Shown piece after piece: positions 1 through 64,000 of a stretch of 64,000 bases of DNA. The first letter of the stretch is position 1; each line of letters opens with the position of its first letter. The DNA comes from an uncultured Candidatus Saccharibacteria bacterium (lineage in GTDB: Bacteria; Patescibacteriota; Minisyncoccia; Phycocordibacterales; Zambryskibacteraceae): contig CAZDXF010000001.1 in the NCBI GenBank assembly GCA_964509605.1, forward strand, positions 79,619-143,618, written 5' to 3'. Position numbers and translations under genes: made by a program. Below the pieces are notes generated by a model. It was not told the origin of the DNA, searched no databases, and saw only the letters and a list, made by a program, of their open reading frames with translations.

Positions 1-1016
1 AACTAGAAGAACTTTCAAAAGAGTTTATTGATAGGGCAATTGAAATTACAAAAAGAGCCGTAGAAGCTTCTCCTTTTAAAGTGTCTGAAATTGAAGAAGT
101 TATTCTGGTGGGAGGACAAACCAGAATGCCAGCTATTGTTGAAGCAGTAAAAAACTTTTTTGGAAAAGAGCCCAACAAATCTATAAACCCAGATGAAGTG
201 GTTGCTTTGGGGGCCGCTGTTCAAGGTGGAATAATAGCGGGTGATGTAAAAGACATTCTTCTTTTGGATGTCATTCCTCTTTCTTTGGGGATTGAAACCT
301 TGGGAGGTGTTGCAACAAAACTGATTGAAAAAAACACCACAATTCCGGCATCAAAATCACAAATTTTTTCTACTGCAGCAGATAATCAAACTTCTGTTCA
401 AATACATATAGTGCAGGGAGAGCGCCCAATGGCAAGCGACAACAAAAGCTTGGGTCAATTTATACTTGATGGCATTCCTCCGGCTCCAAGAGGAATGCCC
501 CAAGTTGAAGTCGTCTTTGATATAGACGCTAACGGAATTCTAAATGTAAAAGCTAAAGACAAAACTAGTGGTAAAGAACAATCTATAAAAATAGAAGCTA
601 GCTCTGGTCTTTCTCAAGAAGAAATAGAAAGAATGAAAAAAGAAGCTGAACTTCACGGAGAAGAAGATAAGAAAAAAGCAGAACTAGTAGAAGCTAAAAA
701 TTTGGCAGAACAGCTTATATATACAGCTGAAAAATCTTTAAAAGACGCTCAAGATAAAGTGCCAGCAGATTTAAAACAAAATATAGAAAGTAAGATTGAA
801 ACTCTTAAAAAAGAAAAAGAGGGAAATGATCTCCAACAAATTAAAAAGACGACGGAAGAATTATCTTCAGAAGTCTCAAAAATTGGACAATTTATGAATC
901 AAGCCCAATCTCAGGGCGAACAAAAATCGGAAGGATCTTCTTCTCAAGAAAATGTTAAGGACGCAGAGTTTGAAGAGAAAAAACCAAACGAAGAACCTCC
1001 AAAAGAAAATCAGTAA
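1..1016 (+). CDS. dnaK: Chaperone DnaK (Hsp70), C-terminal ~338 codons; 5' end lies outside the window
   Basis: The reading frame is open from position 3. The translation [45 protein letters not shown] matches the conserved Hsp70 substrate-binding domain. A charged, EEKK-rich C-terminal tail follows, and dnaJ lies immediately downstream. Confidence 0.95.
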
Positions 1017-17197: not shown

Positions 17198-17237
17198 AAT
17201 TTTTAAAATGATTTCTTAATATGTATATATTATAAGT

Positions 17238-17253
17238 GAACTCTGGTTCACCT
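17238..17253. promoter_or_regulatory. Putative LexA operator (GTGAACTCTGGTTCAC, GAAC-N4-GTTC type)
   Basis: Perfect inverted repeat matching the Gram-positive-type Cheo-box core. It sits in the divergent intergenic region between the small-ORF/lexA unit and the dsbA-like gene. Confidence 0.5.
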
Positions 17254-17324
17254 TTCAATAGATAATTGTGGATAACTTTAATCTTTGCTAAAATAAGCCT
17301 TTAAACGCTTAAAATAAAACAAAA

Positions 17325-18005
17325 ATGAGCTTTATAAAGAGAAACATTTGGGTTGTAGGGTTTGCGGTGCTTTTAGTGGGAGCAATATTTGCAATGTGGG
17401 CCTCAGGCAGAAACTCTGCTATTCCACCCACCGCTCCAATAGTTCAAGAAAACGCGGATATTTCTGTAAATGAAAATGATCATATAAAAGGTAGCCCAAA
17501 CGGAGTTATTACATTGGTTGAATTTAGCGATTTTCAATGTCCAGCTTGCAAAGCTTATGCTCCCATACTTTCCGAACTTTCCCGTCAGTTTCCTGATGAT
17601 TTGAGAATTGTTTATAAACACTTCCCACTAAGATCTATTCACCCTGGGGCAGAACCAGCGGCCAGAGCATCTGAAGCCGCTGCTTTACAAGGAAGATTTT
17701 GGGATATGCACGATATTCTTTTTGAAAACCAAGATGCGTGGGGCCGTGCACCAAGTAGAAACCTTTTTGAAAAATATGCTGGAGATATTGGATTAGACAC
17801 CGAGCAATTCAAAAGAGATTATGATTCTTCTATTGTCAGAGACAAAGTGACTGCAGACTCAGCCCTTTCAGCCGAGCTTGGTTTGAATTCAACACCAAGT
17901 TTTTATCTTAACGGTAGAAAAATTAACAACCCTCTTTCAGTTGAAGAATTTGCGGATCTCATAAGAGCGGAGCTTGCCGTCACTCAAGGTCCAGGCCCTC
18001 AGTAA
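17325..18005 (+). CDS. DsbA-family thiol:disulfide oxidoreductase
   Basis: N-terminal TM anchor and a thioredoxin fold with CxxC (FQCPACKAY). Confidence 0.85.
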   Translation: MSFIKRNIWVVGFAVLLVGAIFAMWASGRNSAIPPTAPIVQENADISVNENDHIKGSPNGVITLVEFSDFQCPACKAYAPILSELSRQFPDDLRIVYKHFPLRSIHPGAEPAARASEAAALQGRFWDMHDILFENQDAWGRAPSRNLFEKYAGDIGLDTEQFKRDYDSSIVRDKVTADSALSAELGLNSTPSFYLNGRKINNPLSVEEFADLIRAELAVTQGPGPQ

Positions 18006-25005: not shown

Positions 25006-25031
25006 ATTTCGTTCGATATATCGAACGAAAT
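25006..25031. promoter_or_regulatory. Perfect 26-bp palindrome ATTTCGTTCGATATATCGAACGAAAT (putative operator) abutting the -35 of the downstream GC-rich gene
   Basis: An exact palindrome. A TTGACTTTTTT-N16-TATAAA promoter follows within 12 bp. Confidence 0.5.
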
Positions 25032-25119: not shown

Positions 25120-25953
25120 ATGAGAAGGCTCCAGAATTGGTTCAGGAAAATAGGTTCGAAAAAAGTTCTGATTGCCGTGATTGGCGTCGTTTTCGGTACC
25201 TTCCTTGGTTCCTTTTTTACTTTCATGTTTGGTCCAGTCATGGGTCTCGTGCCGGGTCTCGTTATCGGTATCATCGGAGGTCTCTTCCTAGGTCTCTTCT
25301 GGGGTTTTGGATCCACCCTCGGCGTTCTTTTAGCTGTTGCTGTGTGGTTATATCCCGGTCCAATGATTTACACTTGGTTGATGGTAACTTTGTCGCTCGT
25401 CATTAAGAGCTGGTTCTTGGTAAGGGGAGAAATGAGGTGGAAAAAGATAATCTGTACAGAGAATGCTCAACACTACCCTTCCCTTTCCGACCTGAGGCAA
25501 AGCTCTCTTCGGCTGATTGAAGTAGAGGGATTCTCCGTTTTTAAGAAAAAGGCGGAGGAGGTGTACCTAGATCTACCGAAGATCGCCCGAGAGCTCTTAG
25601 ATCTGCATTCCGCCTACAACAAAAGCACTTCCCAAATCAAGACAGAGATGTACAGAGGTGAAATACTTAAGACTGTCGAGAGACTTCTGGAGATGAACGA
25701 GATATTCTCCCAAGAACTCGTCCGTCTTGAGCGTGAACAACCGAGTAGAGAAGCTGACGAATCAAAGATTGTAGTTTCCAAGCTCGCCACAATAGGCGGT
25801 CTTGAAGACACTCTTGATGAACTTCGTCGCCTCAGAGATGGAATGGTTGAAGCGGAAGATGAAACACCTCAAGGCACAGCTCTTGAAAGAGAGATTGATG
25901 GCTTGAAGCAAGCTTCCCCATTGCCGTTTCCTCGCGTGAAAGGCAACTACTAG
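25120..25953 (+). CDS. Hypothetical membrane protein (glycine-zipper-rich 3-TM N-terminus plus cytoplasmic coiled-coil domain); GC-rich cassette gene
   Basis: GGGGAGG Shine-Dalgarno sequence. GxxxG-rich TM helices followed by a ~170-aa charged helical domain. About 50% GC. Own promoter and terminator. Confidence 0.6.
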   Translation: MRRLQNWFRKIGSKKVLIAVIGVVFGTFLGSFFTFMFGPVMGLVPGLVIGIIGGLFLGLFWGFGSTLGVLLAVAVWLYPGPMIYTWLMVTLSLVIKSWFLVRGEMRWKKIICTENAQHYPSLSDLRQSSLRLIEVEGFSVFKKKAEEVYLDLPKIARELLDLHSAYNKSTSQIKTEMYRGEILKTVERLLEMNEIFSQELVRLEREQPSREADESKIVVSKLATIGGLEDTLDELRRLRDGMVEAEDETPQGTALEREIDGLKQASPLPFPRVKGNY

Positions 25954-25999: not shown

Positions 26000-26039
26000 T
26001 ATTTATTAAAATTAATTACAAAGTTTTCCATTTCGTTCA

Positions 26040-26065
26040 ATATATCGAACGAAATGGACTTCTAA
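26040..26065. promoter_or_regulatory. Second copy of the 26-bp palindrome (one mismatch: ATTTCGTTCAATATATCGAACGAAAT)
   Basis: Same sequence as 25006..25031 except G->A at one position. It lies ~70 bp upstream of the next GC-rich ORF. Confidence 0.5.
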
Positions 26066-26394: not shown

Positions 26395-26437
26395 CCCGCA
26401 CGGTCGTAGCGCTACGACCGTGCGGTTTCTGTTTTTT
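26395..26437 (+). terminator. Rho-independent terminator (15-bp perfect palindromic stem + U-tract)
   Basis: CCGCACGGUCGUAGC/GCUACGACCGUGCGG followed by UUUCUGUUUUUU. Confidence 0.65.
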
Positions 26438-26450
26438 CTCTTCTGTCTAC

Positions 26451-26500
26451 TTATTACTGTTTACTAATTACTATCTATTAACTCCTGCCTACTATTTTAG
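26451..26500. repeat. TACTGTTTACTAATTACTATCTA...CCTACTATTTTAG motif, copy a of a 3-member repeat family
   Basis: Related copies lie at 34467..34535 and 38600..38637. Each lies just after a GC-rich terminator and overlaps or abuts the stop codon of a convergent minus-strand gene. Confidence 0.5.
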
Positions 26501-32241: not shown

Positions 32242-32422
32242 AAAGTACTTCTATTTCTCCATCCTTTATTCGCCATTCCTCATTCTTTATTTTTTTCCCC
32301 ATTCCTCCTAAAAGCTAACAACTAGTAGCTAAAAGCTGTCGCTCCCTCTCCCCACTCTCCCCACAACTTTTTCCCTTATAAATATTTTCCTTTTCCTGCC
32401 ACCCTTGTGTTAAAATGCTCGC

Positions 32423-34425: not shown

Positions 34426-34470
34426 AAACACCCCGTTTCGCGATTCGCGAAACGGGGTGTTTTTTTCTAC
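34426..34470 (+). terminator. Rho-independent terminator
   Basis: AAAAAACACCCCGTTTCGCGATTCGCGAAACGGGGTGTTTTTTT. Confidence 0.7.
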
Positions 34471-34535
34471 TGTCTACTAACTACTTCCCACTATTTACTG
34501 TCTACTGTTTACTAACTACTGTCTACTATTTTATT
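34467..34535. repeat. TACTGTCTACTAACTAC...TGTCTACTATTTTA motif, copy b (tandemly reiterated)
   Basis: Contains several iterations of TACTGTCTACT / TTTACTAACTACT. It abuts the rplU stop codon. Confidence 0.5.
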
Positions 34536-36353: not shown

Positions 36354-36421
36354 CTTTTTATTATACCAAGAACATCCTGACAGCTAGTGGCTAAAAGCTA
36401 AAAGCTGTATAATGTCTCATT

Positions 36422-38590: not shown

Positions 38591-38599
38591 TTTCTTATT

Positions 38600-38637
38600 T
38601 TCTGTCCACTGTCTACTAACTATTGTCTACTATCTTA
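38600..38637. repeat. TCTGTCCACTGTCTACTAACTATTGTCTACTATCTTAA motif, copy c
   Basis: Matches copies a and b. It overlaps the stop codon of the convergent Ogt-like gene. Confidence 0.5.
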
Positions 38638-44895: not shown

Positions 44896-45354
44896 TTAGA
44901 ACACTCCTATCTCGCCGAGCTTTTCTGCAGCAGAGTCGGCTTGTTTTTCAATACGCCTGCTGTAGTCGCTCCACTCTTTGTCGTTCCATATTTCAACTCT
45001 GTTATAGACTCCCGCCAAGACCACTTTGCTTTTCAAATTTGCATAGTCTCGCAAAAAGTCAGGAATCAAAATACGACCGACAGAATCAACTTCGACCTCA
45101 CTCGCTCCGGCAAGCATGAAGCGTGCAATGTCTCGCTGATCTCTTGAACCCATGAGAAGACTGCCAAGTTTTTTTGCCATTTCATTCCAAACATTTGAAG
45201 TAAACACAAAAAGACAGGCATCGAAGCCTCTTGTTACGATAATTTTTTTTCCAAGATCTCGGCGAAACTTGGAGGGGAGAGATATTCTCTTTTTATCGTC
45301 GACGACATGTGTGTATTCTCCAATAAATGTCATAGCAAATTCCACTTTTCCCAC
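44896..45354 (-). CDS. mraZ: Transcriptional regulator MraZ
   Basis: FIGEYTHVVDDKKRISLPSKFR with duplicated SpoVT/AbrB-like halves. It is the first gene of the dcw block. Confidence 0.9.
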   Translation of the reverse strand: MGKVEFAMTFIGEYTHVVDDKKRISLPSKFRRDLGKKIIVTRGFDACLFVFTSNVWNEMAKKLGSLLMGSRDQRDIARFMLAGASEVEVDSVGRILIPDFLRDYANLKSKVVLAGVYNRVEIWNDKEWSDYSRRIEKQADSAAEKLGEIGVF

Positions 45355-45444
45355 TTCTTCCCACTTAACTACAAGTGTAAAACACTTACTCCCACTCAGT
45401 GAAACTTTTTATCCACATTTTTGGTGAACTTCCGTTCACTAATA

Positions 45445-45490
45445 AAAAGAAAACCCACACGACACCTGGAATGGTGTCGTGTGGGAATTT
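45445..45490 (-). terminator. Rho-independent terminator of the GC-rich three-gene operon
   Basis: On the minus strand: CCCACACGACACCAUUCCAGGUGUCGUGUGGG + UUUUCUUUUU. Confidence 0.65.
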
Positions 45491-45505
45491 AGGAACAACT
45501 TTGTA

Positions 45506-47284
45506 TCAAACGCCAACGGTGAGACGACGCTTCTTTGTCGCCACCTTTTTGGACTGAGACTTGCCATCGGAAGACTTCTGATCCTTAACGTTGCTGTCAA
45601 GAATCTTCTTGCCACGACGTCCTCCAAACTGACGCCCGGCGATGGTATCGCCGTGAATCAGCATGAAAACGTACGGGGCATAGGTCTCCTCCAACACAAG
45701 TTCTGCGAACGGCGCCCAATCGCTCGGGGCGGCCCGGAGAGCCAGCGCCTGTAGCATGACATACTCCTGGAAACGCATCAGAGTTCTGTCACTGTGCTCT
45801 TCGCACTGTTGCCACAGAGGGTGCAGAACATTAATCCTCAGGGTGCCGGTTTCCTCTTCCAATACCCAGAGTCGGTCGCTTCCCTGAATAGCATCATGCA
45901 CCAACTGAAGTCCGAGACTGTTGCTACGGACAATCGTTCGGCGTGTGCCTTTTGGACCAACGACCGTCATGGGACGGTGTTCTGGACGTTCCTTCTCGGG
46001 TTCAAAGTTCTCATTACCCTCACCCTCACCATTTGAGGGCTTCTCGGGACGAAGGTTATTGACGGCCAGAGACGTTTCCGGAGAAGGACTTCCCTTCTTT
46101 TCGAAATGCCCAGGTCCAATCGAACCCTTCTTGAAAGACTCAATGGCCTTGAGAAGCCCAGCAAACTGCGGCCTCTTCAACATCTCTTCGATGACTTTCA
46201 TCGAACGAATGCCGAGTTGCTGGTAGCGCTCCTCTTGCCGCTGATCATTAGCGTCCTGATAATGCTCGGCGCCGTGTTCAGCGAACCACTTTTCGAGGAT
46301 CACACAGAAACCAACCAGCGACTCGTCGGCCTCAAACGACCGGCGACTGGCGTGGAGTGTGATTGCACTGTTGAGGACCTCACCCTCGAAAAGACCAGAA
46401 CCCAGAGCAGACACAAGCTCATCCGAGAGCTTACACGCCTCCGGCAAGGACCGATTGAATGTCGAGAAGTTCAGACGAAAATCGTTGTCCTTCTCGCCAA
46501 CCAAGACCTTACCATTGCGCTTACCCTTCTTATCCTTCTGGGCCAAGAAGAGTCGGAAGTGGGTCTGCCCCGACTCCCTGTCTCGATAATCGACCTCTTC
46601 CAGCTTCCTGCCAGTGAAGTCCTTGGCCCTGATTTCACAACTCTGCCGTTCACCGTCTTCATCGACGACAGTCAACTCAATCACCGACTGGTTCTTACGC
46701 ATGGTGGAAGCGAAACGCTCCAACACACCATCACGAAGGGAATCCATAGTCACGATGTTGATCTGTCGATCGGTCGTGAACCCTTCGATTCTCACCTCAG
46801 TACGCCAGCGAACAGAGGACACTCCACGAACCACTCGCGTCTCTGCCCGAGAAAACTGCAGATCGAGGCGCTCCCTCATGGGGATGCCTTCGATCTTCTG
46901 CTGTTTCAGGAGATCGTCGGTAACGAAGCTCCACTCCAAGAAACCCTTGGGGTTCCGCTTGGTAGTGGAGGTAAAGATGAATCGAGCACACTTGCCCAAT
47001 GGCGAGATAAGCCCAAGACCAAAGCGTCCCAATTTATCCTTCTTCTTGATGGAAGAGGAAACGCTGGTCAGGGCCTTTTCAAACTCTTGCTGACTCACTC
47101 CATCTCCATCATCGCGGACAGCGATCTGACGCTGCTTCTGATTCACAACGATGGTGATAACCTGAGCTCCCTTGTCGAGACAGTTTTGCACGCTCTCGAG
47201 CAAGACATCCAGGATCCTAGGGTAGTACCCCGCAAGTTTGAGCAGGGCCGCTCCCTCATGAAAACTAAAAGGGCTCTGTTTCAC
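45506..47284 (-). CDS. GHKL-superfamily ATPase (MORC/MutL/Hsp90-like Bergerat fold) with unknown C-terminal domains; third gene of the GC-rich operon
   Basis: N-box ESVQNCLDKGA (ExxxNxxD), G1 RDDGDGV, and G2 LGRFGLGLIS, followed by ~450 aa without recognised motifs, including an E/G-rich linker. GTG start with an AAAGGAGA Shine-Dalgarno sequence. About 55% GC. Confidence 0.7.
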   Translation of the reverse strand: MKQSPFSFHEGAALLKLAGYYPRILDVLLESVQNCLDKGAQVITIVVNQKQRQIAVRDDGDGVSQQEFEKALTSVSSSIKKKDKLGRFGLGLISPLGKCARFIFTSTTKRNPKGFLEWSFVTDDLLKQQKIEGIPMRERLDLQFSRAETRVVRGVSSVRWRTEVRIEGFTTDRQINIVTMDSLRDGVLERFASTMRKNQSVIELTVVDEDGERQSCEIRAKDFTGRKLEEVDYRDRESGQTHFRLFLAQKDKKGKRNGKVLVGEKDNDFRLNFSTFNRSLPEACKLSDELVSALGSGLFEGEVLNSAITLHASRRSFEADESLVGFCVILEKWFAEHGAEHYQDANDQRQEERYQQLGIRSMKVIEEMLKRPQFAGLLKAIESFKKGSIGPGHFEKKGSPSPETSLAVNNLRPEKPSNGEGEGNENFEPEKERPEHRPMTVVGPKGTRRTIVRSNSLGLQLVHDAIQGSDRLWVLEEETGTLRINVLHPLWQQCEEHSDRTLMRFQEYVMLQALALRAAPSDWAPFAELVLEETYAPYVFMLIHGDTIAGRQFGGRRGKKILDSNVKDQKSSDGKSQSKKVATKKRRLTVGV

Positions 47285-47301
47285 TGCAGTCTCCTTTTTG
47301 C

Positions 47302-48072
47302 TTATTGCTGGTGGTTGTTGACAAGCTCGCGAGCCTTCTCACTACAGAGTCGACTCGACGCTTTCGACAGGCGAAACATACCATCAGATCCAGTCCGCTT
47401 ACGCAGCTCGTTACGTTGTTCTCGACTGGTTTCAGAAACCGCCCTTTCAAGAAGAGGGGTGATAGCCAAAACCAGATGAGCCAAGACCTCAATTGAAATT
47501 GGGTCTTGTTTCTCAAGATCGAGTGCGCCTTTTGCTACTTGAGTAACTGGTGTACTGGGGGGGTCCGTCTCAACATAAATCTTGATTGACGGAACCCGCA
47601 TCAAAACGCTAAGCAGGGTGGCCTTTTTCTTTGCCAACTCTTCCCCTGCTTCCCCATAGAGCCTTTCTACCTTCTGCGTTCTGGCAGTGTTGGTATCAGA
47701 ATCCGCACGAGCCAAGCGAAATACGCTGTGCGTATCACCGAAACCAAGATGTTCACGGGCTTCTTCTGGCGTCAAAATATCGTACGCCAAAAGCTCGGCT
47801 AGCTTGTGACTGACATGATCAGTACCATGCACATATTCCACAAGCTCGTACCCAACCGCTTCGAGAAATAGACGAAGCTTGATCAGTGGCTCTCCCAACG
47901 GAACATTTCGACCATAAATCCAGGCCGATACCGTGTCAGGATGAACGCGCACAAACTCAACCAGTGGCAATTTCGCCTTGCCAGCTTCCTTGCTACCTTT
48001 CGGTGGTAGAGAATGTTCGGCAAAATGTGCCAAACACTCAATTGTGGTGCCTCGAAACAGTTTACTCATCAC
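47302..48072 (-). CDS. Hypothetical helical protein (256 aa); second gene of the GC-rich operon
   Basis: AAGGAG Shine-Dalgarno sequence 6 nt upstream. About 55% GC. It lies 17 bp upstream of the GHKL ATPase gene. Confidence 0.6.
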   Translation of the reverse strand: MMSKLFRGTTIECLAHFAEHSLPPKGSKEAGKAKLPLVEFVRVHPDTVSAWIYGRNVPLGEPLIKLRLFLEAVGYELVEYVHGTDHVSHKLAELLAYDILTPEEAREHLGFGDTHSVFRLARADSDTNTARTQKVERLYGEAGEELAKKKATLLSVLMRVPSIKIYVETDPPSTPVTQVAKGALDLEKQDPISIEVLAHLVLAITPLLERAVSETSREQRNELRKRTGSDGMFRLSKASSRLCSEKARELVNNHQQ

Positions 48073-56090: not shown

Positions 56091-57179
56091 TTAAAAGAGT
56101 TTTAGTATGTCATTTATGGTAACAGCCACCATAAGAAGAATGAGAAGAATAAAACCCAGGCCATTTAAAGTGTTTGCGATTTGAGGTTTTATTGGGCTAC
56201 CTTTTATTGCTTCAATGATTACAAATAAAATTCTGCCACCATCAAGCGCAGGAAATGGAAGTAAGTTTATTATTGCCAAGTTTATAGAAATAAAAGCAGT
56301 AAAAGAAAGGAGGTAAATTATTCCAAGCTGAGAAACATCTCCAACGAGACCCACAATTCCCACAGGTCCGGTAATTTCCGAGAAACCGCCATTTCCAGTA
56401 AAAGCGTCTTTTATGAAATTAAATAAACCGACACTTATTACTCCAATAAGACTGACCGTTGTCTTTCCCGCTTCCCAAAAAGCTTCGTGTGGAGGAAGTC
56501 TCAAAGTTCCGATCATATCCATAGAGACTCCGACTACTGATCTGCCAGAGACAATTCCCTCTTCTGGAGTGAGATTAAATGTTAGTTCCTGCTGACCCCT
56601 TCTTATTTCAAAAAGTATTTCATCTCTACTGTGAGCTTCAATAAAATTGGAAACACCTTGCGGAGAAACTTCTTCCAAAACCCTGTCTTGAGAAGAGACA
56701 GCACTTATCACATCTCCTGGCTTAATACCCGATCTCTCCGCCGGAGAATCTGGTGATATTTGAGTTATGACGAGCTTTGGATCTATGACTCTATCGGGCG
56801 CTTCAGAAACCGGAGTTGGTAATCCAAACATGGAACCAAAAGATATAAGGACCCAAGCAAATATAATATTAAAAAATACCCCAGCGCCCAAAACAGCTGT
56901 CTGAACCAATTTTGGTTTGTAAGCAAAATTTCTACTTCTCTCTTCTTCCGGAATAGGCTCTTCTGTTGGATCTTCTCCTACAATTTTAACAAAACCACCA
57001 AAAGGAACTGCGTTTAGTGAATAGAGCGTTTCTCCAACTTTTTTACTCCAAATTTTTGGAGGAAAACCAATACCAAATTCATCTACTCTAATGCCTGATT
57101 TTTTTGCGACCAAAAAATGTCCGAGTTCGTGGACAAAAATCAAAACACCCAAAATTATTATAAAAATAATGATGCTCAT
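56091..57179 (-). CDS. rseP: Site-2 protease RseP (M50 zinc metalloprotease with PDZ)
   Basis: HExxH (FVHELGHF), a PDZ domain, LDGG motif. Confidence 0.9.
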   Translation of the reverse strand: MSIIIFIIILGVLIFVHELGHFLVAKKSGIRVDEFGIGFPPKIWSKKVGETLYSLNAVPFGGFVKIVGEDPTEEPIPEEERSRNFAYKPKLVQTAVLGAGVFFNIIFAWVLISFGSMFGLPTPVSEAPDRVIDPKLVITQISPDSPAERSGIKPGDVISAVSSQDRVLEEVSPQGVSNFIEAHSRDEILFEIRRGQQELTFNLTPEEGIVSGRSVVGVSMDMIGTLRLPPHEAFWEAGKTTVSLIGVISVGLFNFIKDAFTGNGGFSEITGPVGIVGLVGDVSQLGIIYLLSFTAFISINLAIINLLPFPALDGGRILFVIIEAIKGSPIKPQIANTLNGLGFILLILLMVAVTINDILKLF

Positions 57180-57727
57180 TAGTTCATTATTTCGGCTTCT
57201 TTCCTTTCTGCCATAGCATCAAGATTTTTATTGGCATCATCAACAATCTTCTGCATTTCATTTTTAAGTCTAAACTTGTCGTCTTCGGCAATTTCTCCAG
57301 CTTTTTCTTTTTCCTGTATCTCTTCCCAGACCCTCTCCCTCTCTTTTCTCAAGCTGATTCTGGCCTCTTCGTGTTTTTGATTTGCAACCTTTGTCAAAGA
57401 AGTTCTTCTTTCCGAAGTCAATTCTGGAAATGAAATCCGCAATCCTTTTTCATCCGAAGAAACAGACAACCCGAGATCAGAATCTAAAACAGCTTTTTCT
57501 ATTGATTTGACCTGCGTCATATCCCAAGGAACCACTCTTATGGTCTTGGGATCTTCTACAGCAATGCTGGCCAATTGATTTATGTGCATTCTAGACCCGT
57601 AGGAATCAACAGAAATTGCATCCAAGATTGCTGGAGTTGCTCTACCCGTCCGTATTGAAGAAAACTCTTTTTTGAGCCACTCTTCAATGTCAGATATTTT
57701 TTGTTTGAACTGATTAAAGTTATACAT
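57179..57727 (-). CDS. frr: Ribosome recycling factor
   Basis: Full-length RRF with the conserved helical-bundle and beta-domain layout (MYNFNQFKQKISDIEEWLKKEFSSIRTGRA). Confidence 0.95.
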   Translation of the reverse strand: MYNFNQFKQKISDIEEWLKKEFSSIRTGRATPAILDAISVDSYGSRMHINQLASIAVEDPKTIRVVPWDMTQVKSIEKAVLDSDLGLSVSSDEKGLRISFPELTSERRTSLTKVANQKHEEARISLRKERERVWEEIQEKEKAGEIAEDDKFRLKNEMQKIVDDANKNLDAMAERKEAEIMN

Positions 57728-57760
57728 ATTTTCTAAATTGTATCAGAGAAAAGTACGAAA

Positions 57761-58282
57761 TCAATTTATCTGCAAAGCCATAAAAATAAACAAAGTAGCA
57801 ATAATCATTTGAATTATTGGCCCAATAACATAACGGCCCCTCATTCTTATGTGAGTGTGGATGAAAAGATGAAATTTCTGGAGAGATGTTAGAGGCTCTT
57901 TTCTAATCTTGAAATATAGAAACTGGAGTCCGTCCGGAGCAATTCCACCAAAAGCACCCCACAAAACCGGCCAAAAAAACAGACTTCCAATATCCAAAAG
58001 AACAGAGAAGCCTTGGGGATGAAAAAAGAAAAATATAATGAGGAAACCCAGCGCCAAATCTAAAATCATTTTTGAAATATCAATCAAAAAATTTTTTCCG
58101 ATGACCAAATCACCATCCAAATCATTTTGTCCATCTTTTTTAGAAAGAAGATGATAATCCCAATGAGGTATTGCATCCAAAAGATAGTGGCTAGCCATTC
58201 CAGCAACAAATGCGCCAACTGGATTTGCTCCAGAAATTACTGCCAAGGAACCCCCGACAATTGAATGAGTAGAAAAAACCAT
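57761..58282 (-). CDS. Membrane-bound metal-dependent hydrolase-like protein (DUF457/YdjM-like)
   Basis: Polytopic membrane protein with HYLLDAIPHWDYH (H..D..PH.D pattern). Confidence 0.5.
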   Translation of the reverse strand: MVFSTHSIVGGSLAVISGANPVGAFVAGMASHYLLDAIPHWDYHLLSKKDGQNDLDGDLVIGKNFLIDISKMILDLALGFLIIFFFFHPQGFSVLLDIGSLFFWPVLWGAFGGIAPDGLQFLYFKIRKEPLTSLQKFHLFIHTHIRMRGRYVIGPIIQMIIATLFIFMALQIN

Positions 58283-58284
58283 AT

Positions 58285-58950
58285 TTAAGGCAAGACAGAA
58301 GCTATGTGCTCAAGAAGCATTTTAACAGAAGGTGATCTACTGAACATATATTCTCTAGCTTTCACTATTTCCTGCAGAGCAAAATTCAAATCTTCACTTC
58401 TATTATCTTTAATAAAAAGTTCTGTTTCTAAAGCAGAAAGAAGGTTGATGGCTTTTGCTTTATCTTTTTCGTCCGATATTTCTTTTATAATTTTTGCTCT
58501 TTCTCCCTGATTTGAATTCAAAAAATTCCTAGCCGATTTTTCTTCCTCCAGAGCTTCTCTGCCCAGATCTAATAAAAAAAGACGAGATCGAAGTGTCGGC
58601 AAAAATATTTCATGATTCGGAACAATTATAAAAAAATGATTGTCTGGATTTGGTTCTTCAAAAAGTTTAAGTAGCGAATTTTGTGCTTCAAAAGTTATAG
58701 AATCAAAAACTAAAACAAAAAATTTCTTATTTCCAAATGGTTTTGTTGAATGAAGATCAGAAATCTTTCTACCATCATCAATTCCAAAAGTCTCATATTC
58801 CCCCATCCAAAAATCGGGGTTTCCTCTGATTTTAGTTTTTAGATCTTTTTCTATAAACACAAGCACTTTGGAAAGTGCCGTATTTCTATCTCCGCAAATG
58901 CCATAAGCGTGGTGAATAGATTCCGGTTTTATATAAAGAGAAAGATTCAT
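58285..58950 (-). CDS. holB: DNA polymerase III clamp-loader delta' (or delta) subunit-like
   Basis: AAA+-like fold lacking an intact P-loop, with an SRC-type motif (TLRSRLF). Confidence 0.7.
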   Translation of the reverse strand: MNLSLYIKPESIHHAYGICGDRNTALSKVLVFIEKDLKTKIRGNPDFWMGEYETFGIDDGRKISDLHSTKPFGNKKFFVLVFDSITFEAQNSLLKLFEEPNPDNHFFIIVPNHEIFLPTLRSRLFLLDLGREALEEEKSARNFLNSNQGERAKIIKEISDEKDKAKAINLLSALETELFIKDNRSEDLNFALQEIVKAREYMFSRSPSVKMLLEHIASVLP

Positions 58951-58957
58951 GGTGGTT

Positions 58958-59014
58958 TAGCTTATAGCTTACGTGCCCGTTGGTTTTTTGCCAAGCAAAA
59001 ACCTTAGGGTAGCT
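58958..59014 (-). promoter_or_regulatory. ~50-bp promoter module (TTGGCA-N17-TAAGCT with CCAACGGGCACG spacer) upstream of holB; inverted copy at 63618..63672 upstream of def
   Basis: AGCTTACGTGCCCGTTGGTTTTTTGCCAAGCAAAAACCTTAGGGTAGCTT. Its reverse complement is ~90% identical to 63620-63669. Confidence 0.45.
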
Positions 59015-59070
59015 TATAGTTTATATATAGACCACACAAGCTTCTAATTCGTATTTTGAGCCATTCAAAC

Positions 59071-59162
59071 AAACCGGACCTTAGAAAATATTGCGGAGGC
59101 CGACGGACCGAGCATAACAATTCCGTAGCAACGGAATATGTGCATTTTCTAAGGTCCGGTTT
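59071..59162. repeat. 19-bp perfect inverted repeat (AAACCGGACCTTAGAAAAT / ATTTTCTAAGGTCCGGTTT) enclosing a 54-nt loop that contains the ATTCCGT..ACGGAAT sub-hairpin
   Basis: It lies immediately 3' of the mreB-paralogue stop and ~120 bp upstream of holB. A large terminator, or a MITE-like or sRNA-like element. Confidence 0.5.
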
Positions 59163-59168
59163 CAAAGA

Positions 59169-60191
59169 CTATCGCTTTGCAATAATAGATTTCTTATATG
59201 TATCCAAATGCTCAAGAGCAATTCCTGTCCCCCTAGCAACACAATAAATTGGATCTTTTGCTAAAACCGCTTTCACTCCCGTTCTTCTAAAAATAAGCTC
59301 CGGAAGATTTCTCAACTGAGAAGTCCCTCCTGTCATTATAATTCCACGATCAATAATATCTGAGGAAAGTTCTGGCGGAGTTTCTTGCAATACATCCTTT
59401 ATTGCTTTTACAATCTCGCGAAGTTCTTTGCCGATTGATTTTACAATTTCATTTGTTTTTATTTCCACAGACCTAGGCAATCCTAAAACATAGTCCCTGC
59501 CTTTTATGGTCATTGAAAGCTCCTCGTCCAAAGGAACAGCTGATCCAACTTTTATTTTTATTTCCTCAGCTGTTCTGTCGCCTATCGCTAAGTTAAAAGT
59601 CTTTTTAATATAATCTGCAATCGCTGTATCAATTCTATTTCCTGCACACTTCACCGAAGTTGATGACACTATTCCACCCAAAGAAATTACCGCCACATCT
59701 GTAGTCCCTCCCCCAATATCAACAATCATATGCCCCAATGGTTCATGAATTGGAATACCCGCTCCAATGGCCGCTAAAATCGGCTCTTTAACAACATAAG
59801 CATTTTTTGCTCCGGCTTTTACTGCCGCTTCTACCACCGCCCTTCTTTCTGTTGAGCTGACACCTGCGGGAACAGAAACCAAAACATCTGGCTTTGAAAT
59901 ATTCCATCTTCCCATGGCTTTATTTATATAATACCTAAGCATGGCTTCAGTCGTTCTGTAATCTGCGATAACGCCATCTTTCATTGGACGATAAGCAATA
60001 ATATTTTCTGGAGTTTTTCCTATCATTTTCTTTGCATCAATCCCTATTGCCAAAATCTTATTGTCTTCTTCAGAAACGGCCACCACAGAGGGTTCATTTA
60101 GTACAATTCCTCGCCCAGGAACAAAGACGAGAACACTAGTCGTTCCTAAATCAATACCGAGTTTTTTGGAGAAAATACCCATATAATTCAA
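59169..60191 (-). CDS. MreB/Mbl-family actin homologue (second paralogue)
   Basis: 340 aa with actin-fold motifs (LGIDLGTTSV, DIGGGTTD, MTGGTS). Confidence 0.85.
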   Translation of the reverse strand: MNYMGIFSKKLGIDLGTTSVLVFVPGRGIVLNEPSVVAVSEEDNKILAIGIDAKKMIGKTPENIIAYRPMKDGVIADYRTTEAMLRYYINKAMGRWNISKPDVLVSVPAGVSSTERRAVVEAAVKAGAKNAYVVKEPILAAIGAGIPIHEPLGHMIVDIGGGTTDVAVISLGGIVSSTSVKCAGNRIDTAIADYIKKTFNLAIGDRTAEEIKIKVGSAVPLDEELSMTIKGRDYVLGLPRSVEIKTNEIVKSIGKELREIVKAIKDVLQETPPELSSDIIDRGIIMTGGTSQLRNLPELIFRRTGVKAVLAKDPIYCVARGTGIALEHLDTYKKSIIAKR

Positions 60192-60332
60192 GTTTTAAGA
60201 TACTATCACGACCGCCATAAGTCCAGAAAGGACCTCTTGCCAAAACCTCTTAAAATCTGGCGATAAATCAAAATCCCAAAAAAACATTGATTTTCAAAAG
60301 CTATTTTGCAAGAATTACGACCAAACTAAAAG

Positions 60333-61112
60333 ATGAGGGGCAAAATTTTCAAAAAAGCACTTATAACCATTGGGGTCGTAGCAATATTTGCTTTGGTAAT
60401 ACTAATGCAAAGCGGATGGAGACCTGAAGGTTCTCTTGTTTTGTCGGGGGCAAAAATTTCAATAGAAGTCCCTCTTGAAGGATCTGTTGTATTTTTAGAC
60501 GGCAAAGAGAAAGCTTATACTTCAAAAGATCGCGAATTAGTATCTCTGCCAAAAGTTTCAAAAGGAGAACACACGATAGTCGTGCATAAAGAAAATTTTT
60601 GGCCTTGGGCAAAAACTATTCAATCACAAAAAGGCGATGAATTTTATCTTAAAAGTTTTCATCTGCCACAAAGACTTGATGTTGAAAACTTGGAGCTAGG
60701 AAGTGAAGCCAGAGAAAATGCAAGAAGAAGACTTTTGAGCCACACAGCACCGAGCTCAAACAAACCAGTCTCTTCTGCAGACGAAAAAGCTTCCCTTTGG
60801 ACAGAAAATAATAAAATATTTGTGGAGTGGAAAGGCGGAGACAAACCTCATTATTTCTGTAAAGAAGAAATTTGCGACAGCAGAATAGAGGTATTAAACG
60901 CTCTCTCAAATATAATAAGTGCCGATTTTCTCAAAGATAGAAATGATGTCGTTATCTTTTCAAACGAAGAAGGAATATTCGCTATAGAAGTAGATAAAAC
61001 CGAAACACAAAACTTCCAACCGATATGGAGAGTAAGAAACCCAAAATTTGTCCAAAGCCCAGATGGTCTTTTTGTTGAAGAAGGCGGAGGAATCTATTTT
61101 ATCGCTTTCTAG
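60333..61112 (+). CDS. Hypothetical membrane-anchored protein (PEGA-like beta-sandwich N-region)
   Basis: N-terminal TM helix, then SLVLSGAKISIEVPLEGSVVFLDGKEKAYTS...GEHTIVV. Confidence 0.45.
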   Translation: MRGKIFKKALITIGVVAIFALVILMQSGWRPEGSLVLSGAKISIEVPLEGSVVFLDGKEKAYTSKDRELVSLPKVSKGEHTIVVHKENFWPWAKTIQSQKGDEFYLKSFHLPQRLDVENLELGSEARENARRRLLSHTAPSSNKPVSSADEKASLWTENNKIFVEWKGGDKPHYFCKEEICDSRIEVLNALSNIISADFLKDRNDVVIFSNEEGIFAIEVDKTETQNFQPIWRVRNPKFVQSPDGLFVEEGGGIYFIAF

Positions 61113-61156
61113 ATTTGGAGTTTGTAAAAGGTCTCTGAAAACAATAGTATTTAAGT

Positions 61157-63049
61157 ATGAGAGTCTTTGCTGTTATCCCAATTTCTAAAGGGATATCTAA
61201 AAACCTACTTTCTTACTTTGGCCCTGATTCAATTCCATTAGGCTCTTTAGTTTCTGTGCCACTCAGAGGAAAAGCTACTCCAGCAATAGTGGTAAAAAAA
61301 CAAGATGTCTTACACATAAAAAGCGAGTTGCGAAGTGCCAAATTTGAGCTTAAAAAAATAATTGCTGTAAAAGAAAAACATTTCTTGCCCGATAAGTTTT
61401 TGGAAAGCGCAGAGCAAACAGCAGAATTTTTTGCTTCTCCGATAGGGTCTTTTCTCGGTTCTGTAGTACCAAAATTTGTATTGGAACATTCAAGTAAAAT
61501 TGGAACAAAAGAAACCGGCACAGCCCATGGTGCTGGTGAAAAATTTGTAATACAGGCAGATGACGAAGAAAGAATTGTAAATTACAAAAGTTTTATCAGA
61601 GAAGAATTCGCAAAAAAACGATCTGTTTTTTTCTGCCTGCCGACAATAGAAGACATTAATAAAATAGAAAAGGTTTTGGATAGAGGTATAGAGCAATACA
61701 CTGTTTCTTTTCATAGCGGGCTTTCAAAAAAAGAATTTCTAAAAAGATACGAGGTGGTTAAAGATAGATCCCATCCTGTTTTGATTATCGGGACAGTCCC
61801 CTTTCTCTCTCTGTTTAGACAAGACATAGGATCAATAATTTTGGACAGAGAAAATTCTAGAGGATACAGAACTCTTTCAAGACCCTTTGTGGATTTAAAA
61901 AAATTCGCGGAAATTTTTGCTAAAAACAGAAAAGCTCGCTTTATTTTGGGAGACTCATTTCTCTCTGTAGAAACTCTATGGAGACAAAAAAATGATGAAC
62001 TCTTGGAATTCTCTCCAGTAAAATTCAGAAATTTAAGCTCTGCTGAGTGCGTGCTTATAGATATGAAAAAGAAAAAAGACTCCGAAGAGAAGGAGTTTAG
62101 GGTACTGAGTCCAGAGCTTGAAGAGCTCATCGAATTTAACAAGAAAAAAAATCAAAACCTTTTTATATTTAGTTCTAGAAAGGGTCTCTCTCCAGTGACG
62201 GTATGCGGAGATTGCGGAAAAGTGGTCGTATGCAAATCCTGTGGAGCTGTGTTAGTGCTTCACTCTGGAACACAAAACAAAGAAAATTTCTTTTTGTGCC
62301 ACAAGTGCGGAGAACAAAGAAGCGCTACGGAAAAATGTGAAAATTGCCGAAGCTGGAAACTTAATCCTCTTGGTATTGGAATAGAAAAAGTTGAAATAGA
62401 AATAAAGAAAAAATTCCCAGATGTAAAAATCTTTAGAGTAGACAAAGAATCGGCCAAAACTCAGAAAAAAGCTCGAGAAATTGTTTCAAAATTTGTCTCT
62501 TCCCCAGGGTCTATCCTTCTGGGCACAGAGATGGCTCTACTTTCTCTTTCGGAGTCGGTCGAAAATACAGCGGTCGCCTCTATGGACTCAATGTTTTCAA
62601 TTCCAGATTTTAGAATAAACGAAAGAGTTTTTTATATTCTCCAAAAAGTGAGATCTTTGGCAAAAAACATTTTTCTAGTTCAGACCAGAAACAGCGATAA
62701 CCCACTTTTTGAAAAAGCTATAAATGGTAGTGTTACGGAATTTTTTAGACAAGAGATAGAAGAAAGAGAAAAATTTAATTATCCTCCGTTCAAAATCTTT
62801 GTAAAAATTAGTTTGCAAGGGAAAAAAGCTGTTGTTTTGAAAGAAATGGAAGCTATTGAAAAAATGTTTGAAGGCGAAGACTTGAGCGTCTTTACTGGAT
62901 CTATCTCCGGAACTGGCGAAAAAATATTTTCTGTTCATGCATTAATGCGCTTTTCGCCAAAAGATTGGCCTAAAAAGTCTGTTATTGAAAAGATTCTACT
63001 TCTGCCACCACAATTCAAAATCCAAGTAGACCCAGAGAGTTTGCTTTAG
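61157..63049 (+). CDS. priA: Primosomal protein N' (PriA) homologue with degenerate helicase motifs
   Basis: N-terminal 3'-DNA-binding-like domain and the PriA Cys-rich region (CGDCGKVVVCKSCG...CHKCGEQ...CENC), with the C-terminal domain. Walker A is replaced by GTAHGAGEKF and the DEAH box by ILDRENS. Confidence 0.7.
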   Translation: MRVFAVIPISKGISKNLLSYFGPDSIPLGSLVSVPLRGKATPAIVVKKQDVLHIKSELRSAKFELKKIIAVKEKHFLPDKFLESAEQTAEFFASPIGSFLGSVVPKFVLEHSSKIGTKETGTAHGAGEKFVIQADDEERIVNYKSFIREEFAKKRSVFFCLPTIEDINKIEKVLDRGIEQYTVSFHSGLSKKEFLKRYEVVKDRSHPVLIIGTVPFLSLFRQDIGSIILDRENSRGYRTLSRPFVDLKKFAEIFAKNRKARFILGDSFLSVETLWRQKNDELLEFSPVKFRNLSSAECVLIDMKKKKDSEEKEFRVLSPELEELIEFNKKKNQNLFIFSSRKGLSPVTVCGDCGKVVVCKSCGAVLVLHSGTQNKENFFLCHKCGEQRSATEKCENCRSWKLNPLGIGIEKVEIEIKKKFPDVKIFRVDKESAKTQKKAREIVSKFVSSPGSILLGTEMALLSLSESVENTAVASMDSMFSIPDFRINERVFYILQKVRSLAKNIFLVQTRNSDNPLFEKAINGSVTEFFRQEIEEREKFNYPPFKIFVKISLQGKKAVVLKEMEAIEKMFEGEDLSVFTGSISGTGEKIFSVHALMRFSPKDWPKKSVIEKILLLPPQFKIQVDPESLL

Positions 63050-63123
63050 TTTGACAAATAATTTATATATGTCATGATTGGTAACAGACAACAACATAGT
63101 TCTTCATCAACAAGGAGAAACAG

Positions 63124-63573
63124 ATGCGCAAAACTATATGTGCCCTGATTTTTGGGCTTTCCGTTTTCGCATGCGAAAACGGAGCGTCGGTGGTAGATAG
63201 ACCAAATAGTAGTACCGGTGCTTCGGAGACATTGTTTAGGTTCGAACTGGCCCCGCAAATGAACGGTCATCTTTTCAGGAGCGGAGACTATTTCTTCTAT
63301 GTGATGTGTATGGGGCTTAACAGCCGAACTCGTTTTGAGAACGACCCACCGTGGTGGAACGCTCAGGTTAGGTTCGGACTAAGTCTGGAGAAATTGAAAA
63401 TCGACTCTCTTAGACTGGATATGGTTCAGCCTGGGCACTGGAATACTCACTACGGTAAAGATGAGTGGCGTCAGAATTCACCCAGCGCGACTCCAATCAG
63501 AGATATCAAGACAATCACCATCAACAGAACTGAGGGTTCTGCTTGTTGGCTCCTTCGAACAAAAGAATTCTGA
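63124..63573 (+). CDS. Hypothetical lipoprotein (149 aa); GC-rich cassette gene
   Basis: AAGGAGA Shine-Dalgarno sequence. Signal peptide with a lipobox-like LSVFAC. About 50% GC. A GC hairpin terminator follows. Confidence 0.5.
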   Translation: MRKTICALIFGLSVFACENGASVVDRPNSSTGASETLFRFELAPQMNGHLFRSGDYFFYVMCMGLNSRTRFENDPPWWNAQVRFGLSLEKLKIDSLRLDMVQPGHWNTHYGKDEWRQNSPSATPIRDIKTITINRTEGSACWLLRTKEF

Positions 63574-63577
63574 CCCC

Positions 63578-63615
63578 ACGAAGAACCTCACAGTTCTTCG
63601 TGGGGTTCTTTTCTT
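63578..63615 (+). terminator. Rho-independent terminator
   Basis: CCACGAAGAACCUCACAGUUCUUCGUGG + GGUUCUUUUCUU. Confidence 0.6.
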
Positions 63616-63617
63616 GA

Positions 63618-63672
63618 GTTATTTAAATAAAAGCTACCCTGATCTTTTTGCTTGTCAAAAAGCCAACGGGCA
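63618..63672 (+). promoter_or_regulatory. def promoter module (TTGTCA-N17-TAAGCT), inverted copy of 58958..59014
   Basis: AAGCTACCCTGATCTTTTTGCTTGTCAAAAAGCCAACGGGCACGTAAGCT. Confidence 0.45.
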
Positions 63673-63700
63673 CGTAAGCTAAAAACCAAAAGCTACAAAT

Positions 63701-64000
63701 ATGGCAAAAATAGTTCAAAAAGAAGATAAAATACTTCGCTCTATTGCAAAAGAAGTACCAATAAGCGAAATAAAAAGCAAAAAAGTTCAGAAAATCATAT
63801 CTGATATGAAAGCTCTTTTGGCAAAAGAGCCGGATGGCGTAGCGATAGCGGCGCCTCAAATCGGAGTTCCCTTTAGAATTTTTGTAGTGTCAGGAAAAGT
63901 AAAATCTTTTCTAGAAAAAACTGAAAAAGAGTACCCCGACTCTGTTTATATAAACCCTAAAATAACCAAATTATCAAAAGACAAAAAACTAATGGAAGAA
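63701..64000 (+). CDS. def: Peptide deformylase (5' 100 codons; truncated by window end)
   Basis: GVAIAAPQIGVPFRIFVV matches the conserved GxGxAAxQ motif 1 region of PDF. Confidence 0.85.
   Translation, partial: MAKIVQKEDKILRSIAKEVPISEIKSKKVQKIISDMKALLAKEPDGVAIAAPQIGVPFRIFVVSGKVKSFLEKTEKEYPDSVYINPKITKLSKDKKLMEE

Follow-up and report, generated by a model that had tools for sequence, protein, structure and literature searches.

A 64,000-nt stretch of contig CAZDXF010000001.1 from an uncultured bacterium (positions 79,619 to 143,618; hereafter the window) carries the same module of about 50 bp twice, once ahead of holB on the minus strand and once, inverted, ahead of def on the plus strand. 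The locus raises the question of whether the pair is a shared regulatory module, implying co-regulation of the two genes, or the termini of a composite or invertible segment, the two possibilities raised in an original prediction made from the sequence alone. Our answer, to which we assign a probability of about 0.6, is that the two arms are paralogous copies of a σ70-type promoter, copied in this lineage only, rather than mobile or invertible ends.

The repeat is real. An inverted-repeat search paired 58956-59021 (minus) with 63625-63690 (plus) over 66 nt at 85% complementarity, 4603 nt apart, the longest inverted repeat anywhere in the 64 kb. BLASTN resolved a core similarity of 51 nt at 90.2% identity (E = 1.7e-12), and aligning the 150 nt ahead of each gene with gaps allowed extended it to 72 nt at 84.7% (E = 1.3e-19), running on beyond the right-hand TAAGCTA repeat described below. 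The copies differ at five of the 51 positions, and their longest exact run, 19 nt, comprises the spacer and the −10 hexamer. The 18-mer CCAACGGGCACGTAAGCT is restricted in the window to 58966-58983 (minus) and 63663-63680 (plus), against an expectation of 0.01 from shuffled sequence. Re-reading both copies reproduced the module sequence as originally given, including its [T/G] and [G/A] differences, and the identity of about 90%, the inverted placement and the TTGNCA-17-TAAGCT layout were likewise borne out. Read on the holB strand, copy A is ...TATAAGCTA-CCCTAAGGTTTTTGCTTGGCAAAAAACCAACGGGCACG-TAAGCTATAAGCTAAACCACC-ATG and spans −6 to −71 relative to the holB start codon; read on the def strand, copy B is ...AAAAGCTA-CCCTGATCTTTTTGCTTGTCAAAAAGCCAACGGGCACG-TAAGCTAAAAACCAAAAGCTACAAAT-ATG and spans −11 to −76. 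Both copies are directed outward from the 4.6-kb interval, each toward its start codon. The parts of the two copies and the genes that follow them are:

58956-59021, minus: copy A, one arm of the inverted repeat; its end is 6 nt from the holB ATG (repeat search, BLASTN)
58989-58994, minus: −35-like hexamer TTGGCA of copy A (pattern scan)
58966-58971, minus: −10-like hexamer TAAGCT of copy A, after a 17-nt spacer and 15 nt from the ATG
58972-59009, minus: 38-nt core A, CCCTAAGG...GGGCACG
58958-58971, minus: pair of TAAGCTA heptads on the right side of core A, within the presumed ancestral (TATAAGC)n array before holB
59010-59016, minus: TAAGCTA heptad on the left side of core A, repeated directly at 58965-58971; −10 of an ancestral-type promoter
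59034-59039, minus: TTGTGT, −35 of the ancestral-type promoter, 17 nt from the TAAGCT at 59016-59011
58285-58950, minus: holB (DNA polymerase III δ'; Pfam DNA_pol3_delta2), downstream of copy A and head of a long minus-strand gene string
63572-63607, plus: intrinsic terminator of the lipoprotein cassette, a 15-pair stem followed by a T run, 17 nt before copy B
63625-63690, plus: copy B, ending 10 nt before the def ATG (repeat search, BLASTN)
63652-63657, plus: −35-like hexamer TTGTCA of copy B
63675-63680, plus: −10-like hexamer TAAGCT of copy B, after a 17-nt spacer and 20 nt from the ATG
63637-63674, plus: 38-nt core B, 50% GC, lying between AAAGCTA (63630-63636) and TAAGCTA (63675-63681)
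63701-64000, plus: def (peptide deformylase; Pfam Pep_deformylase), downstream of copy B and truncated by the window end

In each copy an AT-rich upstream stretch, a −35 hexamer TTG(G/T)CA, a 17-nt spacer, a −10 hexamer TAAGCT and a short untranslated start would together form a promoter. The −35 hexamers TTGGCA and TTGTCA match the consensus at five of six positions, and the spacing agrees with the 17 ± 1 nt of σ70 promoters. Copy A would drive the holB gene string leftwards and copy B def(-fmt) rightwards, so that the inverted arrangement would simply follow from the divergence of two transcription units. RNA polymerase would start at the module in both places, and the two genes may be expressed alike. 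The terminator at 63572-63607 is predicted to uncouple def from priA transcription, and because copy B begins 17 nt after this strong terminator, def needs a promoter of its own. We favor common descent of the copies over a merely shared binding site because the contiguous similarity spans 51-72 nt; by contrast, GTGAAC-N4-GTTCAC, a likely transcription-factor site elsewhere in the window, is a mere 16-bp palindrome with dissimilar flanks.

The genes of the interval are as originally called. Pfam identifies an MreB paralogue, a PEGA-like protein (a weak match, E = 0.0011, below the Pfam cutoff) and PriA (3'BD domain). The fourth, a 149-aa protein, is a predicted lipoprotein from its translation, with an N-terminal signal/lipobox-like sequence, 47% GC and no Pfam family match. 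The five flanking genes add the families RRF and Peptidase_M50. The nine genes between 56091 and the window end, four inside the interval and five beside it, matched no transposase or recombinase family. By its holB homologues the organism belongs to the Parcubacteria/Paceibacterota, part of the candidate phyla radiation (CPR).

Upstream regions of holB and def in related genomes

Related loci fall into two groups by holB protein identity, one at 74-77% (L004, L005/L006 and L015) and one at about 48% (L016, L018/L019 and L020/L021). Their arrangement is fmt-def←priA←PEGA-like, then mreB2→holB→(170 aa)→frr→rseP, and the orientation in the window is identical. The same order and orientation, with the repeat absent, is found in L004, L005/L006, L016, L018/L019 and L020/L021. 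All related loci thus show a single orientation of the intervening segment, where the original prediction had proposed looking for its inversion.

Every relative that carries a structured element after the mreB paralogue (described below) has an array of heptads directly before the holB ATG. The array reads TATAAGC three times and then TATG in L018; TATAAGC TATAAGC AATAAGC TATAAGC TGTACGC in L004; and TATAAGT TATAATT TGTnAGn in L005 and L015. Arrays of this (TATAAGC)n type adjoin the holB start at 58958-59016 in the window, 9960-10000 in L004, 9980-10000 in L005, 550-574 in L015 and 5975-6000 in L018; they are kept across relatives with 48% to 77% protein identity, with three to five heptads. 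A change in heptad number would alter the distance from promoter to start codon at holB.

Scanning with the pattern TTGNNN-16..18-TAnnnT gave one match each before holB in L004, L005, L015 and L018, of the form TTGTTT-16/17-TAAGCT or TAATTT, with unrelated spacers. In three of the four the −10 lies within the heptad array and its end is 7 nt from the ATG, which gives a leaderless geometry. These matches support the reading of the module as TTGNCA-17-TAAGCT. The same scan of the window found two matches before holB, TTGTGT-17-TAAGCT (59039-59011) and, within the module, TTGGCA-17-TAAGCT (58994-58966). TTGTGT is the counterpart of the relatives' TTGTTT, and by hand alignment the −35 and spacer of this upstream promoter resemble those of L004; the 51-nt similarity between copies A and B starts only at its −10 heptad. 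Copy A can therefore be described as the ancestral promoter plus 45 extra nucleotides, the 38-nt core and a second TAAGCTA, inside the heptad array. Core A (GC about 47-50%, against 39% for the window) is not present in the relatives. It showed no significant similarity to their upstream regions and has only the 13-mer TAAGCTATAAGCT in common with the regions upstream of holB. A tandem duplication of the ancestral promoter unit was rejected as the origin of the core, with only about 13 of 45 positions matching between the two 45-nt units in a hand count.

At def, the relatives differ in what precedes the gene. In L016, L020 and L004 it follows priA directly, with gaps of 2-15 nt; in L004 a related TGATAGATT overlaps the priA stop codon. 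In L005 and L018 a small GC-rich secreted-protein gene with its own terminator is inserted between priA and def; the inserted gene is homologous to that of the window in L005 and is a different gene in L018. After the cassette terminator, L005 and L018 have in common ACAATG(A/G)TAAAGTCAT..AGAAATG, an extended −10 promoter of the TGnTAAAGT type. The window retains the L005-type terminator and lacks the TGnTAAAGT-type def promoter, with copy B in its place. The TTGTCA-17-TAAGCT of the module is the sole −35/−10 pair that the scan found between the terminator and the def ATG.

The priA-def junction is itself a variable slot (window 63050-63610; L005 5285-5860; L018 1470-1930). A small secreted-protein or lipoprotein gene with its own promoter and terminator occupies it in the window and L005, and this gene is GC-richer (47% in the window). 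The L018 slot holds a small gene with a hydrophobic N-terminus that by eye is apparently unrelated to the other two, and the slot is empty in L004, L016 and L020.

Taken with the relatives, the promoter copies would have the following history. The copying would have occurred after the split from the relatives with 74-77% identical HolB. At holB, a 45-nt insertion containing the 38-nt core, with its new −35, and a second TAAGCTA would have entered just downstream of the ancestral promoter. At def, the module would have taken the place of the extended −10 promoter (TGnTAAAGT) that in relatives follows the cassette terminator. The apparently ancestral heptads at holB would favor that gene as the donor. 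The significant similarity consists of repeat, core and repeat, and the core has a raised GC content, as does the cassette on the def side; these two points would fit an insertion at holB with def or a third site as its source. In either direction, copying could plausibly have proceeded through microhomology at the AGCT-containing heptads.

Several points weigh against this account. The −10 hexamer TAAGCT agrees with TATAAT at three of six positions (T1, A2 and T6), a simple promoter scan flagged neither copy (both fell below its threshold), and most other promoters visible in the window are of the TGnTAtAAT type. Promoter activity and transcription starts at the module are predictions. With five differences in 51 nt, the conservation pattern cannot show selection; were those differences placed at random, an identical run of 19 nt would be expected in 27-50% of cases. 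Of the regulatory module originally proposed, the promoter part is supported at the level of sequence, by the position and orientation of the copies, the terminator before copy B and the geometry in four relatives; co-regulation is only implied, and no regulator or regulon was found.

Competing explanations

The 38-nt core could instead be a miniature insertion element that carries a −35 and was inserted independently into (T/A)AAGCTA heptads at the two loci, duplicating a 7-bp target. We consider this unlikely, though several features invite it. The TAAGCTA repeat flanking core A is perfect, and the flanks of core B match at six of seven positions. Both loci regain a clean heptad array when the core and one repeat are excised, and at holB the ancestral-type TTGTGT-17-TAAGCT is then left intact. 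The solid 51-nt similarity coincides with repeat, core and repeat, and the GC content of the core stands above the 39% background. The flanks, however, are alike at both loci and contain the palindrome AGCT, which makes them indistinguishable from sequence duplicated along with the core; identical flanks are equally expected if one copy was duplicated together with its surroundings, and the gapped similarity does extend past the right-hand repeat. Clear terminal inverted repeats were not found in the core, and the module folds no better than its shuffles as RNA or DNA (z = −0.3 to −1.7).

An element of this kind might also be expected to leave more copies than the two that we count in the 64-kb window of this genome, where no third was found at up to three mismatches or with BLAST at word size 7. 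Exact scans for the core gave three stretches in the GTDB representative genomes, all on unrelated contigs with dissimilar flanks, and eight in the JGI metagenomes, on unrelated contigs that share no flanks; these chance matches sit mostly in GC-rich contigs. Two patterns gave zero matches in IMG/VR, and the relatives' loci hold no copy.

Correia elements of Neisseria, other miniature inverted-repeat transposable elements and repetitive extragenic palindromes (REPs and REPINs) reach copy numbers in the tens to hundreds. Their terminal inverted repeats are clear and their length usually exceeds 100 bp, although REPs measure about 35 bp and are accompanied by a REP-associated tyrosine transposase (RAYT) gene. 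The module resembles such elements as a short extragenic repeat with an internal palindrome and short direct-repeat flanks, and with a −35 set beside a resident −10-like sequence. It differs in the two copies seen, and neither clear terminal inverted repeats nor a partner transposase was found. A stricter form of the insertion reading, in which the core is a transposase-less, promoter-carrying insertion that targets (T/A)AAGCTA arrays and places its −35 17 nt from a resident TAAGCT, is less probable still; if true, it would amount to a dedicated "promoter cassette" mobilized within a reduced CPR genome.

Also unlikely is the proposal that the module is conserved as an operator, at which a dimeric regulator would bind TTTTTG(C)-N3-5-(G)CAAAAA, or the GC-rich spacer, and co-regulate the holB string with def-fmt. 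A palindrome overlaps the −35 in both copies (TTTTTGC-N3-GCAAAAA in core A), the 19 nt of spacer and −10 are identical, and an operator would be compatible with promoter duplication. Yet the central and outer positions of the palindrome differ between the copies, the length of the identical run is not unusual for a pair at 90%, and the relatives would express the same genes from unrelated spacers. The sole other TTTTTG-N3-7-CAAAAA in the window lies within the rseP coding sequence, leaving no further upstream sites, and Pfam made no regulator evident among the nine genes from 56091 to 64000.

A neutral duplication is also improbable. Here the module would be a passenger, with holB starting, for example, at the ancestral TTGTGT-17-TAAGCT and def at the AAAGCT or the TACAAA nearer its ATG. 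The intact ancestral-type promoter upstream of core A and the weak −10 of the module fit such a reading, as does the distance of the module's TAAGCT from the ATG (15 and 20 nt), unlike the relatives' leaderless 7 nt. At def, however, the native promoter is gone and the module is the only recognizable one between terminator and start codon. A passenger module is thus possible at holB, where the ancestral promoter appears to survive, and less likely at def.

We regard as highly improbable a composite transposon terminated by the repeats, or a segment that inverts through recombination between its arms, since beyond the fact that inverted repeats bracket 4.6 kb, the enclosed mreB paralogue, PEGA-like gene and priA are syntenic housekeeping genes in relatives down to about 48% holB identity, all without the repeats; arms 85-90% identical with so short an exact run would be poor substrates for homologous recombination; direct target duplications are absent outside the arms, where the outer flanks instead continue the inverted similarity; transposase and recombinase matches are lacking in the nine genes; and inversion between outward arms would leave the promoter-gene pairing unchanged. 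The likeness to fimS, hin and the Bacteroides invertons lies in inverted repeats tied to promoters. There, a segment of a few hundred base pairs with one promoter lies between short inverted repeats and is flipped by a dedicated recombinase; here the arms themselves would be outward promoters, the interval is 4.6 kb of housekeeping genes, and a flipped state was not seen in the relatives.

Other candidates for the module were set aside. Leader, riboswitch and structured-element readings were dropped on the folding results and on Rfam 15, in which no match over either copy reached its gathering score (the best, a cut-off rli33, scored 23.8 bits against a gathering score of 46 bits). A σ54 −24/−12 promoter was rejected by eye, as the GG-N10-GC spacing does not hold and TGGCA is lost in copy B; so was an integron attC site, with the RYYYAAC/GTTRRRY pair and an integrase absent. 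Inspection against the consensus sequences likewise led us to reject parS, dif, a DnaA box and a LexA box.

Other elements of the window

A conserved structured element lies between the mreB paralogue and the holB promoter, separate from the module:

59071-59162, minus: conserved structured element following the mreB paralogue, some 50 nt ahead of copy A

Counterparts of about 90-105 nt lie at 9851-9956 in L004, 9737-9844 in L005, 410-517 in L015 and 5792-5902 in L018; in the loci examined the element follows the mreB2 stop codon by 3-8 nt and precedes the holB promoter. The element folds into a 19-bp closing stem with two inner hairpins. Of its 36 pairs, 18 are changed on both sides among the five sequences, where slid controls give one or two, and the paired share of cells is 93.8%; G-U pairs favor the mreB2/holB strand. 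No Rfam match appeared even at E ≤ 10. Each locus has one copy, with a weak second partial copy in L005 and L006; L016 and L020 lack the element and have simple terminator hairpins instead. The element probably marks the 3' end of the mreB2 transcript; candidate roles are an elaborate transcript end or terminator and a small RNA of a kind not yet known.

The palindrome GTGAAC-N4-GTTCAC occurs twice in the window (17236-17275, plus; 45409-45439, minus), against 0.07 copies expected, with TGTGGATAA coming within 6-15 nt after each; the two lie upstream of 17325-18005 (226 aa) and 44896-45354 (152 aa). The palindrome is a likely LexA-type box, its GAAC-N4-GTTC resembling the Gram-positive LexA (Cheo) box, and TGTGGATAA resembles a DnaA box. 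A perfect 26-bp palindrome, ATTTCGTTCGATATATCGAACGAAAT, also occurs twice (25006-25031 and 26030-26055), 1024 nt apart, around a gene for a 277-aa protein (25120-25953).

A second set of tandemly repeated heptads (CTGTCTA, CTAACTA and the like) is intergenic and near gene ends, at 26429-26495, 34460-34529 and 38599-38633. AAAAGCT heptads (GCTAAAAGCTAAAAGCTG) lie at 36390-36406, just upstream of the TATAAT box of gene 36422, and again at 32309-32337 in the upstream region of 32423; they resemble the AAGCTA heptads that flank the module. The stretch from 45000 to 48000 has a GC content of 48-53%, against 39% for the window, with open reading frames at 45506-47284 and 47302-48072 (minus), and this DNA may be foreign.

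The proposed promoter duplication and its meaning

Putative mobile promoters have been defined as non-coding repeats no shorter than 50 nt and no less than 80% identical (E < 1e-4), within about 150 nt upstream of non-homologous genes, with upstream neighbors that are also non-homologous (Matus-Garcia, Nijveen & van Passel, Nucleic Acids Research 2012; PMC3488235). In that survey two-member families form the majority, with a mean identity of 92% and a mean alignment length of 66 nt. Between holB and def there is no BLASTN match at 1e-4, the best BLASTP E value is 1.3 and the Pfam families differ; the mreB paralogue and the lipoprotein gene likewise show no BLASTN match and a BLASTP E value of 2.4. 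By every one of these sequence criteria the A/B pair would be classed as a putative mobile promoter, and its two members, at 51 nt and 90% or 66 nt and 85%, resemble the typical case of that survey. What sets it apart is the comparative detail, with an insertion into a heptad array and a native promoter replaced, and the CPR host; the published families and this pair are alike known from sequence.

Duplicated promoters ahead of unrelated genes are documented in thousands of families, and the present pair does not reveal a new mechanism. Mildly new is the combination of a heptad-array insertion at one locus with the replacement of a conserved promoter at the other, in a CPR host. If the two arms are indeed paralogous promoters, the locus would provide a clean example, dated by comparison with relatives, of how promoters turn over in a reduced Parcubacteria genome, in which the native def promoter was replaced by a holB-type copy. 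It would also lend indirect support to a promoter form in the uncultivated bacteria of this group, TTGnnn-17-TAAGCT, often at a leaderless distance from the ATG.

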